Positions 9,458 to 12,500 of a DNA stretch of 64,000 nt are shown in pieces. The notes under the pieces were generated by a model. That model did no database searches, was not told where the DNA came from, and worked only from the letters and a program-made list of their open reading frames with translations. Numbering within the stretch: position 1 is the stretch's first letter; every line of letters begins with the position of its first letter. This DNA comes from Massalongia carnosa. Taxonomy: Eukaryota. Both the position numbers and the translations under genes were made by a program. The stretch is taken from assembly GCA_965645245.1 (NCBI GenBank), contig OZ287067.1:3472001-3536000 (forward strand), read 5' to 3'.

Positions 9458-9581
9458 GGACGTGTGGCCCAATGGGTAAGATAAATCCTTAGGTTATACC
9501 TTGTGCATAATGACTAACAGCCTTTAGCAAGGCGCTTGACTACGAATCAAGAGATTCCAGGTTCGATCCCTGGCACGTTCA
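9458..9581 (+). tRNA. tRNA-Arg(ACG) with a 52-nt intron in the D-loop (9476-9527)
   Basis: Exons 9458-9475 and 9528-9581 join to a 72-nt cloverleaf: acceptor GGACGTG/CACGTTC, anticodon arm CTTGA-CTACGAA-TCAAG, T arm CCAGG-TTCGATC-CCTGG. A box TGGCCCAATGG, B box GGTTCGATCCC and T7 terminator (9583-9589) are present. Confidence 0.92.
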
Positions 9582-12500
9582 ATTTTTTTGTATTTGACTA
9601 GCATACAATACTGCCATTATATTATTTATTGTGTTATCACTTTTAACCACTCGAAAATAATATAAATCGTGTGTTTGTTTCCTAACCCTGGAGTTTGGAC
9701 CGACTCGGTCCCTAATCCTATGTGGAGACAACCATTACGGCTTGAGCAATAACCTGGCTGCTTCGACGAATGGACACTCGTGACACTCAAGCGTCAGCTG
9801 AAGCGATGGAGGGATTTATTAATCCTGACTGCGAGTTCAAAATAAAAGAAGCCAACCATCGCGGGGGATTAAGATTCCGAAGACGAGAAGCAGGATGAAT
9901 GAAAAATATTCTCTCAATAAACTACTAAAATTATGAGAGTTACTTTATCATATGGTACTTTATTTACCTTGTCCTGGACCGAATTCCATGCACATGCCCA
10001 TGAGCCTACAGATCATGCTAACCAGCCTCCACGATTGCCGTCTTTAAACCTTTACCCTGCATAACAGAAGGGCACTATCTTCTCGTACGATCTCTAACAC
10101 CAATCGTGTATTAATGCGGATTGTGCGTGAAAACCGAAACAATCTGCTTCGATAGAGCTTTGCTGGAGTAAAGATGGATTTTCATTGACCGAACAGCGTT
10201 AAGTAAACCAGCTGGGCCTGCAAACTTAGCCTTGCTGTTGTCCTTCAGCCTTGCGCCCGACCTTGCGCCTTAAAAGAACGGAGTTTTTCAGCAGCCTGAC
10301 GCTGCCAGCACGATGGTCTTTTCACGATGCCTTAACAAGGACCAGATCGATCATGATCTATTAAGCCGAACTTAACCCTGATTGCTGAGTCTTAAGGCCC
10401 AAAAGCAATCAAAAATACCTGAGTTGTTTCATTTCACCTCTCTTTGCGCTGTGAAATGAAATTCTTTGGAAACCCGAGCCGCGCAGAAACTGACGATCAG
10501 AGCTTGGATGAAAATGACCTTCTAATAAACTCATTGCAGAAGAAGAATCCGGAAGAGATGACCAAACTCGCTCAGGATTTCCTCACAGTGACTAGAGTTG
10601 AACGTCTCCCCCACGAATATATCCGGAAAGGTCGTTTCCTTGCCCGTGAGTCAAAGGCGTTCGAAAACGAACATAGCGATGCTAGAGCTTTAACCGCAGA
10701 CGAAATGGAGGCATTGAAGAGAGAAGACAGACAGAAGGGAACAAACCCTTAATTCTCTATGCTCTGGGGGCGTGCTGCTTAATGGGAGCTGCTGTTCAGG
10801 GCTGGGATGAGGTAAGTGTGCCCCCTTTTCAAACTAAAGGCAAGCTTTCATTTTGTATGCTAATGATGCCGACCCTCAGCGTTCTTTCCAAACCCCGGGT
10901 TTTGGTAATTTAGCATCTCGTCTTTACTACGCCATCACCGGATGCTAGCATTCACGTCAGTTCAGATTACAAGTCAGCTTGAGTCCACTGACGATTTTCA
11001 TCCAGGTTGATCGAGCTTCTGAACCGCTTCTTTTGATAAAAAGGGTATCATTTTTGTTGCGTGTCTGCTCTCTAGCATTACCTACAAATGCTTATATGAA
11101 CGGAATCTATGCAAGCTATCTAGCAGTTTCCAGAGCAATCATATTGGACCTTGAACAAGCAGACCTATCAGCCTTCCTTACCTGCCTATCAGGCACCACG
11201 TATCCCGCTGTGATGGATGCTCACATACTCCTCTGATCTGACACTTGGCAATTCTTTACTCATACTTGATGGCAGCTATTTGTTGCACATTTTTTGTCTT
11301 GATATACTGGCCTCTCGAGAATCTCGAATGATAACTTGAGGCTGATTTTTAAAGTCAGGCTTTGGTATAGGCCGAAGAGCGGAATGGTGCCAATATGTGT
11401 CTGTGTGTACAGGGTAAAAAGGAGCTAAATGAGTTTTATGATGTGACAGATGTGGACTGCTTTTGGAATCCTGCCGGGCTACATGACGAGGGTCGTTATG
11501 GGTTCTATTACAAATATATAGGACGATGCGACGGAGGCTGACCGTTGGAAGTCCGATGAGTATCAATACTTTTGAGGGATGCAGCCAGCGTATAATCGGT
11601 GCAATCAAAAGTTCACACTTGCGGAAAGCTCACCGTCTGTTAATAAAACTATCCATATTTCCGACACGCGCCCACCAATTCTTTAGATGGCTTCTCTTTC
11701 CCTTCTTTTCCCTTTCTCTTTCCTTGCTCGCCCCCCTCTCTTCTCGCTCCGAAAAGCGAGACCATTCCCAATGCTAGGAGCAGCTTTCAACTCATTCTGC
11801 CGACTTAGTGGCTCCAAGTTGTTAGCCCCCTCGAGATCGCCCCCAGACCTAACACACACTTCTCGAATAAGAAAAGTGGAAGGGTTGCTTCGTCAACTTA
11901 TTCAGCGAACCTTGCAATCGTCGCGCGTTGACAGCAAGTTTGGTCTGCAAGTTGGTTCAGCATGTCTGCGGCGTTAATGTTGTTATTGCTTTGTGGGGAT
12001 ATTCTAAGAGAGCTTTGGAGAGGATTTCTATAAATCATTTCTTCGATCTTCAAGGATGCTAAATTCAATAGCAAAAAGACCCTGCAGACATAATTTAAAC
12101 CTCATCTTTCGAGAGAAACTTCCATTGACTCAAGATGCGGCGCTGCTTGCCGGCAGGCATTTTTTTAATTCCCATTCACTTCCATCTACAGAATGAAGAC
12201 TATGGGAGATAATGCTGATGATACGCCATGTTTAGATATCGACAGGATTCGGAGATTTCAATTTCATTTTGCCTTGCCAGCGATTTGAACGAAAGGTTTG
12301 TTTGGCTGTCGTGATCTTCTCCTCTTAAGCTTCCCGTGAATGGCCGTTTTTCAGATGTGTCTTGGTCTTTCGCTCCTTTTCTAAAGACGAGGCAAAGAGG
12401 AATAGAATAATAGTGACATTCAGCATGTGTACCTATTTCATGGATCGCCAGAATTAGAAGAAGTAAGATCTTAACAAAAATCATGAGAAATCCCTTCAGC

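Follow-up and report, generated by a model that had tools for sequence, protein, structure and literature searches.

Structure of the interrupted tRNA gene

The DNA analysed here is a stretch of 64,000 nucleotides (nt) from contig OZ287067.1 of Massalongia carnosa (assembly GCA_965645245.1, positions 3,472,001 to 3,536,000 of the forward strand), hereafter called the window. It carries a probable gene for an arginine transfer RNA (tRNA) with the anticodon ACG, tRNA-Arg(ACG), whose D-loop is split by a 52-nt insert resembling a spliceosomal intron (Table 1). When positions 9476-9527 were removed from 9458-9581, the remaining 72 nt were called as tRNA-Arg(acg) with a full cloverleaf by ARAGORN, in agreement with an earlier note on this DNA, which had proposed a complete 72-nt tRNA-Arg(ACG) without the insert. 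The invariant tRNA bases U8, A14, G18, G19, A21, U33, G53-T54-T55-C56, A58, and C61 are all readable in the window tRNA. The coordinates and motifs stated in the note, among them GTAAGA, TGACTAAC, CCTTTAG, and T7, were all confirmed on the sequence. The boundary of the insert is ambiguous by 1 nt: removal of 9475-9526 yields an identical product, and GT..AG ends are obtained only with 9476-9527.

The note had also described both promoter boxes of RNA polymerase III (Pol III) as intact and the T7 run as the terminator, and direct reading of the sequence agreed with this description. Owing to the insert, the gap separating the A box from the B box measures 84 nt instead of 32 nt; TFIIIC probably tolerates a gap widened to this length. 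The longest T run within the insert is 3, as expected from the claim that it contains no run of 4 or more T.

The interrupted stretch occurs unchanged in two further sequence records; these may be the source of the window itself and are therefore not independent of it. Neither of them came with a second contig at least 80% similar to exon 2, which, the records being filtered, carries no weight as evidence for a single-copy gene. In another sample, intron-less tRNA-Arg(ACG) genes of other organisms were observed, one of them at a depth of about 460, and the same sample also contains three identical low-depth pieces matching the window.

Table 1 Features of the split tRNA-Arg(ACG) gene and of its surroundings in the window.
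Feature	Position	Strand	Remark
tRNA exon 1	9458-9475	+	5' strand of acceptor stem, U8, 5' strand of D-stem, D-loop to G18 G19
A box	9465-9475	+	inside exon 1; read directly
Insert, spliceosomal-type, 52 nt	9476-9527	+	tRNA position 19/20
5' site GTAAGA	9476-9481	+	start of insert
Branch box TGACTAAC	9511-9518	+	candidate branch A at 9517
3' site TAG	9525-9527	+	insert ends CCTTTAG
tRNA exon 2	9528-9581	+	remainder of D-loop and D-stem, anticodon arm, variable loop, T arm, 3' strand of acceptor stem
Anticodon ACG	9542-9544	+	in exon 2
B box	9560-9570	+	in exon 2; read directly
Discriminator A	9581	+	last base of exon 2
T7 run, Pol III terminator-like	9583-9589	+	one A (9582) between; two bases past acceptor stem
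TATA-like upstream element	9417-9443	+	ATATAT about -33 from mature 5' end; common to the locus of the second organism
copia-type long terminal repeat (LTR) retrotransposon	110-6253		LTRs 110-253 and 6110-6253, 97% identical
gag frame of first copia	440-1162
pol frame of first copia	1147-4488		RVT_2, rve, SH3_retrovirus
Broken copia	27054-30686	-	three frames
copia with 1737-amino-acid open frame	44488-50319	+	LTRs 44488-44718 and 50089-50319, 99% identical
Solo LTR-like third copy	58160-58381
Direct repeat, 1.7 kilobases (kb)	24819-26539 and 36870-38592		95% identical; further shared pieces around
DDE_3 transposase-like frame	35084-36283	-	enclosed by the 1.7-kb repeat

Intron-like signals of the insert

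The 5' site GTAAGA matches the fungal GTAAGT at five of six positions, including the G at +5, and the candidate branch A (CTAAC) lies 10 nt from the 3' end of the insert. The chance occurrence of such signals was estimated from 200,000 shuffles that preserved the composition of the insert. The full set, namely an initial GT, a YTRAY lying 6-30 nt before the 3' end, and a terminal YAG, appeared in 0.049% of the shuffles of the window insert, in 0.04% of random sequences of window composition, and in 0.012% of the shuffles of the corresponding insert of a second organism described below (the relative). GT..AG at the exact ends was found in 0.32% (window) and 0.039% (relative) of the shuffles. 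YTRAY alone was present within the branch range in 30-43% of them and is thus a weak motif by itself.

According to the available excerpts of PMC5677156, the 5' sites of 2022 Fusarium introns have the composition G100 T99 A74 A42 G93 T66, the CTRAY branch box is found in 91% of the introns with YAG as the 3' site, and the introns are 42-529 nt long with a median of 57 nt. The inserts of the window and of the relative are 52 and 49 nt long, respectively. Candidate messenger RNA (mRNA) introns obtained by motif scan of the window, for which the gene models are unconfirmed, measure 53-105 nt; these candidates, and one in L002 described below, resemble the insert in the style of their signals. Four candidate introns on the minus strand at 52752-53545 have GTATGT, GTAAGT, or GTGAGT together with CTAAC or CTGAC and YAG; their close spacing suggests a multi-exon gene, and the frames in this region are all short. 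The intron consensus of the window is noisy, being drawn from motif scans and the joining of open reading frames, and much of the window is retrotransposon.

The same arrangement in a second organism

A metagenome scan was conducted with a pattern consisting of exon bases only (A-box end, anticodon loop, variable loop, and beginning of the T-stem), in which the insert sequence was unspecified and a gap of 44-74 nt between the first two exon blocks was left free. Two loci, L001 and L002, were obtained from two different metagenome records. These loci are 99.9% identical over 4050 nt and therefore represent one organism. The same pattern gave no match in genome contigs and none in viral contigs, both of which are poor sources of fungi. 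In L001 and L002, a 49-nt insert occupies exactly the same site as in the window, after G19 (19/20); it starts with GT, ends with CAG, and contains G at only 3 of its 49 bases. Without this insert, the relative's gene was called by ARAGORN as a tRNA-Arg(acg) of 72 bases. A candidate 47-nt mRNA intron (GTAAGC..CTGAC..TAG; gene model unconfirmed) lies beside the tRNA gene in L002.

The exons of the window and the relative are identical at 67 of 72 positions (16 of 18 in exon 1 and 51 of 54 in exon 2). Global alignment of the inserts gave 30 matches over 49 positions, compared with 28.5 ± 2.2 in shuffles. MAFFT paired CTAAC of the window with TTAAC of the relative, placing the candidate branch A 10 and 11 nt from the 3' end, respectively. 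The earlier note had held that an insert present in relatives without conserved splice signals would speak against splicing. In the one other organism found, GT, the TAAC branch box, and YAG are kept, which sustains the proposal in this respect; the G at +5 is lacking.

The five exon differences (C4>T, T6>C, T59>C, A67>G, and C68>T) leave every pair intact. At pair 6-67, U-A is replaced by C-G, which is compensatory, and pairs 4-69 and 5-68 become wobble pairs; all 40 cells formed by the 20 cloverleaf pairs at both loci hold standard pairs. Such a pattern would be expected if the tRNA has been kept in use while the intron drifted with only its splice signals constrained.

Upstream of the genes, local alignment of the 60 nt before each of them revealed about 27 nt common to both loci (score 28 against 15.3 ± 2.9 in shuffles, reached by 5 of 2000). 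The shared element, TGAG-TTG-ATATA-CAAA-TTAATT, is located about 15-45 nt before both genes (9417-9443 in the window and 2448-2477 in L002) and may represent an upstream promoter motif for Pol III that is specific to the lineage. Apart from T runs, the 60 nt downstream showed no significant likeness between the loci (671 of 2000 shuffles); the relative has T3CT4 and then T5 directly after the gene. Homology thus extends from about 45 nt upstream to the terminator, and the flanks are otherwise unrelated. The neighbouring genes differ: no protein-level match was found between the relative's contigs and the window, and L002 encodes a GH10 glycosidase on its upstream side.

Comparison of the insert with other intron types

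Introns of the endonuclease type in tRNA genes are marked by position 37/38 or by a bulge-helix-bulge (BHB) at the junctions, and neither is found here: the insert is at 19/20, and no central helix of 4 base pairs was formed over all 16 bulge registers at either locus, the best register giving 3 of 4 pairs. The window insert folds with a minimum free energy of -2.8 kcal/mol (z +1.40), a stability equalled or exceeded by 189 of 200 shuffles; the corresponding values for the relative's insert are -0.7 kcal/mol and z -0.27.

Group I and group II ribozyme introns measure hundreds of nucleotides. A self-splicing intron of either group was rejected for the 52-nt insert, and no Rfam intron family was found in the window at E values up to 5. 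By eye, neither junction fits the sites of the Ire1/HAC1 type (CNG|CNGN loops), and the 5' site RTATCCTT of U12-type introns is absent. TCCTT is common to both loci at insert positions 11-15, probably by chance or as part of a pyrimidine tract. As for introner-like copies, no repeat of the insert longer than 11 nt was detected in the 64-kb window or in L002.

Possible splicing pathway and alternative explanations

The window locus is a real and conserved tRNA-Arg(ACG) gene and probably a functional one. With modest confidence, we favour the reading that this is a live nuclear gene with a short U2-type (GT-AG, CTAAC) intron that the spliceosome excises. Transcription, the polymerase, the excision, the excising enzyme, and the function of the product are the parts of this reading that we infer. 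In the proposed pathway, Pol III would start from the intact A and B boxes, aided by the TATA-like element at about -33, pass the 52-nt insert, in which there is no run of 4 or more T, and stop at the T7 run. The spliceosome would recognise the unstructured insert by its 5' site, branch box, and YAG and remove it as a lariat, and the joined 72-nt RNA would receive ordinary tRNA end-processing. In the available excerpts of PMC5855946, the sole U6 gene of S. pombe, which is transcribed by Pol III, is described as containing an intron that the spliceosome takes out, and canonical, otherwise unconserved introns are reported for many U6 genes of fungi.

Several observations weigh against the favoured reading. 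The D-loop of the spliced window tRNA is 1 nt shorter than those of two intron-less tRNA-Arg pieces from other organisms. The absence of TTTT from the inserts is weak evidence because 70% (window) and 51% (relative) of the shuffles lack TTTT too. The loci are not syntenic, so their orthology is deduced from the gene itself, and there is one independent relative, so that the conservation concerns two organisms (n = 2). The 5' site of the relative, GTATTA, is without the G at +5 and is unlike the GTAAGC of the candidate mRNA intron neighbouring its tRNA; in Fusarium introns, this position is G in 93% and T in 3%, and the relative's branch candidates, TTAAC and, farther upstream, CTAAA, are secondary motifs (PMC5677156, excerpts). 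Moreover, the acceptor stem of the relative's tRNA contains three G-U pairs, the window gene sits in a transposon-rich region, and eukaryotic insertions in the D-arm or T-arm usually affect a gene present in many copies and are regarded as pseudogenes (PMC4090602, excerpts).

The weak 5' site, the three G-U pairs, the transposon-rich surroundings, and the usual view of such insertions as pseudogenes also speak for a dead or dispensable copy. On this explanation, the genome would have several tRNA-Arg(ACG) genes, one of which was entered by an intron or intron-like element, through reverse splicing, reverse transcription, and recombination, for instance; this copy would be unexpressed or unspliced, and the intron-less copies would do the work. 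Many intron-less copies in the genome could indeed make the window gene dispensable. We nevertheless consider this explanation rather unlikely. The interior of the insert has diverged to the level of shuffles, yet the exons retain their identity with no pair broken and with one compensatory double change. GT, the branch TAAC, and YAG have been kept despite the scarcity of G in the relative's insert. Conservation extends to the upstream element. Intron-less copies could clean the exons by gene conversion, but this would tend to erase the insert. Conserved exons, stems, and signals around a diverged interior are hard to reconcile with a long-dead copy.

The same intron could be removed by the spliceosome from a transcript of RNA polymerase II (Pol II), either the gene's own or a read-through, with the tRNA released by RNase P and RNase Z. 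The conserved TATA-like element at about -33 fits either polymerase, recruitment of the spliceosome is ordinarily tied to Pol II, and a long open frame on the same strand (7594-9102) ends 356 nt upstream of the gene; furthermore, tRNA-Sec of Trypanosoma brucei is made by Pol II. (The last point is from excerpts of PMC2943599.) This route appears improbable, given that the A box, the B box, and the adjoining T7 run are undamaged and properly positioned, that the relative likewise has T runs right after the gene, and that the homology between the loci is confined to the segment from about 45 nt upstream through the terminator. The frame 7594-9102 has no Pfam family or Atlas match and may not be a gene, and it therefore provides no argument for a host transcript. 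Alternatively, the insert might never be removed, leaving either a tRNA with a giant D-loop or a site that acts only at the DNA level by binding TFIIIC and Pol III. The insert follows G18 G19 and lies in the D-loop's variable beta region (the 20/20a/20b pocket), which tolerates length changes, and the A and B boxes are intact. We regard this as very improbable: it leaves unexplained why the exact ends of the insert carry a GT, a branch box, and a YAG in two organisms, neither structure nor sequence is conserved within the insert itself, and the compensatory change in the acceptor stem points to selection on the RNA rather than on a DNA site. Finally, we give hardly any credence to the idea that the insert is a tRNA intron of the non-canonical kind known from Archaea, Cyanidioschyzon merolae, and nucleomorphs, for which the tRNA splicing endonuclease (SEN) would make the cuts and tRNA ligase would join the exons. 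The eukaryotic SEN measures from the mature domain to position 37/38. Sen54 acts as the ruler in this complex, and the lineages just named do have introns inside the D-loop or beside it (20/21 and others; PMC4090602 and PMC3978253, excerpts), but such introns need a BHB, of which neither locus forms the central helix, and the two inserts are unstructured.

Relation to known introns in non-coding RNA genes

If spliceosomal removal is assumed, the closest comparison is with the fungal U6 introns. Both are short GT-AG introns with canonical 5', branch, and 3' sites in otherwise unconserved sequence, and in both cases the host is a gene for a small structured non-coding RNA of the Pol III type in a fungus. 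The removal by the spliceosome is established for S. pombe U6, whereas for the window insert it is deduced from the sequence. The host of the U6 intron is a component of the spliceosome and that of the window insert is a tRNA; the favoured origin of U6 introns by reverse splicing into an RNA of the catalytic centre is accordingly not obviously applicable here. Unlike the U6 introns, the window insert splits a type-2 internal promoter.

Spliceosomal introns have also been listed in the U1, U2, and U5 small nuclear RNA (snRNA) genes of Rhodotorula hasegawae and in ribosomal RNA (rRNA) genes of ascomycetes (PMC5855946, excerpts, citing Takahashi 1993, 1996 and Bhattacharya 2000). These introns resemble the window insert in having non-protein-coding hosts, including a class not transcribed by Pol II (rRNA), and differ from it in that no tRNA is among the hosts. 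The non-canonical tRNA introns of Archaea, C. merolae, and nucleomorphs share with it a position outside 37/38, the D-loop region included (PMC4090602 and PMC3978253, excerpts). They depend on a BHB and the splicing endonuclease, whereas the window insert has GT, CTAAC, and YAG in place of a BHB; the lineage is different as well, the window being from Ascomycota. The canonical introns at 37/38, which are processed by SEN plus Trl1, are similar in being intervening sequences of nuclear tRNAs that need removal before the tRNA can function; the window insert differs from them in its position at 19/20, in the lack of pairing between anticodon and intron, and in its signals of the spliceosomal kind.

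A full-text literature search, which covered few subscription journals, yielded no tRNA gene reported to contain a spliceosomal intron. In the available excerpts of PMC4090602 and PMC3978253, eukaryotic nuclear tRNA introns are of the endonuclease type at 37/38, with BHB-dependent exceptions in a few algae, and the excerpts of the U6 review list spliceosomal introns in snRNA and rRNA genes with tRNA genes unlisted (PMC5855946). The window gene may thus represent a new host class among non-coding genes of the Pol III type and a type of tRNA intron not described before. As a tentative possibility, this would be a fourth class of tRNA introns, in which an ascomycete lineage has long kept a tRNA-Arg(ACG) that matures only through the spliceosome.

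If the favoured reading is true, tRNA precursors would be a new substrate class for the spliceosome and a second, independent example of a Pol III transcript that is spliced, offering a test of splicing without a cap or the C-terminal domain of Pol II, and the case would bear on the origin of new introns in structured RNAs. On the tentative fourth-class reading, the fungus would rely on mRNA-type splicing of a Pol III transcript to decode CGU, CGC, and CGA. Were this, in addition, the genome's sole ACG gene, translation itself would require the spliceosome.

Detection by tRNA gene finders

ARAGORN with default settings reported no tRNA gene in the 64-kb window, and with the intron option it returned a wrong model, 'tRNA-Stop(tta)', spanning 9458-9581. 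The prediction of the earlier note that scanners would miss the gene was therefore borne out for ARAGORN. The Rfam tRNA model covered only 9519-9573 (model positions 9-63 of 71) with 33.2 bits. When the relative's tRNA was examined with its insert, ARAGORN found none and the Rfam model gave 23.8 bits, which is under the threshold of 29. The two loci thus fall into a blind spot of annotation, both being missed or mis-called by ARAGORN and the relative's being sub-threshold in Rfam; on the tentative fourth-class reading, standard tRNA finders would report the genome as being without tRNA-Arg(ACG).

Genomic surroundings

A GT17 glycosyltransferase encoded in the window belongs to clusters composed mainly of Ascomycota. 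The repeats and mobile elements of the window are listed in Table 1; the 3' LTR of the first copia element lies 3.2 kb upstream of the tRNA gene. The flanks of this gene (6254-14000) are unique within the window, and the gene is therefore not part of a transposon. Within the first copia element, a match to an HDV-like ribozyme was observed on the minus strand at 5186-5257; its score of 31.4 bits (E 0.063) is below the gathering score of 44, and it is probably due to chance. This match adjoins a tandem repeat at 4783-5104.

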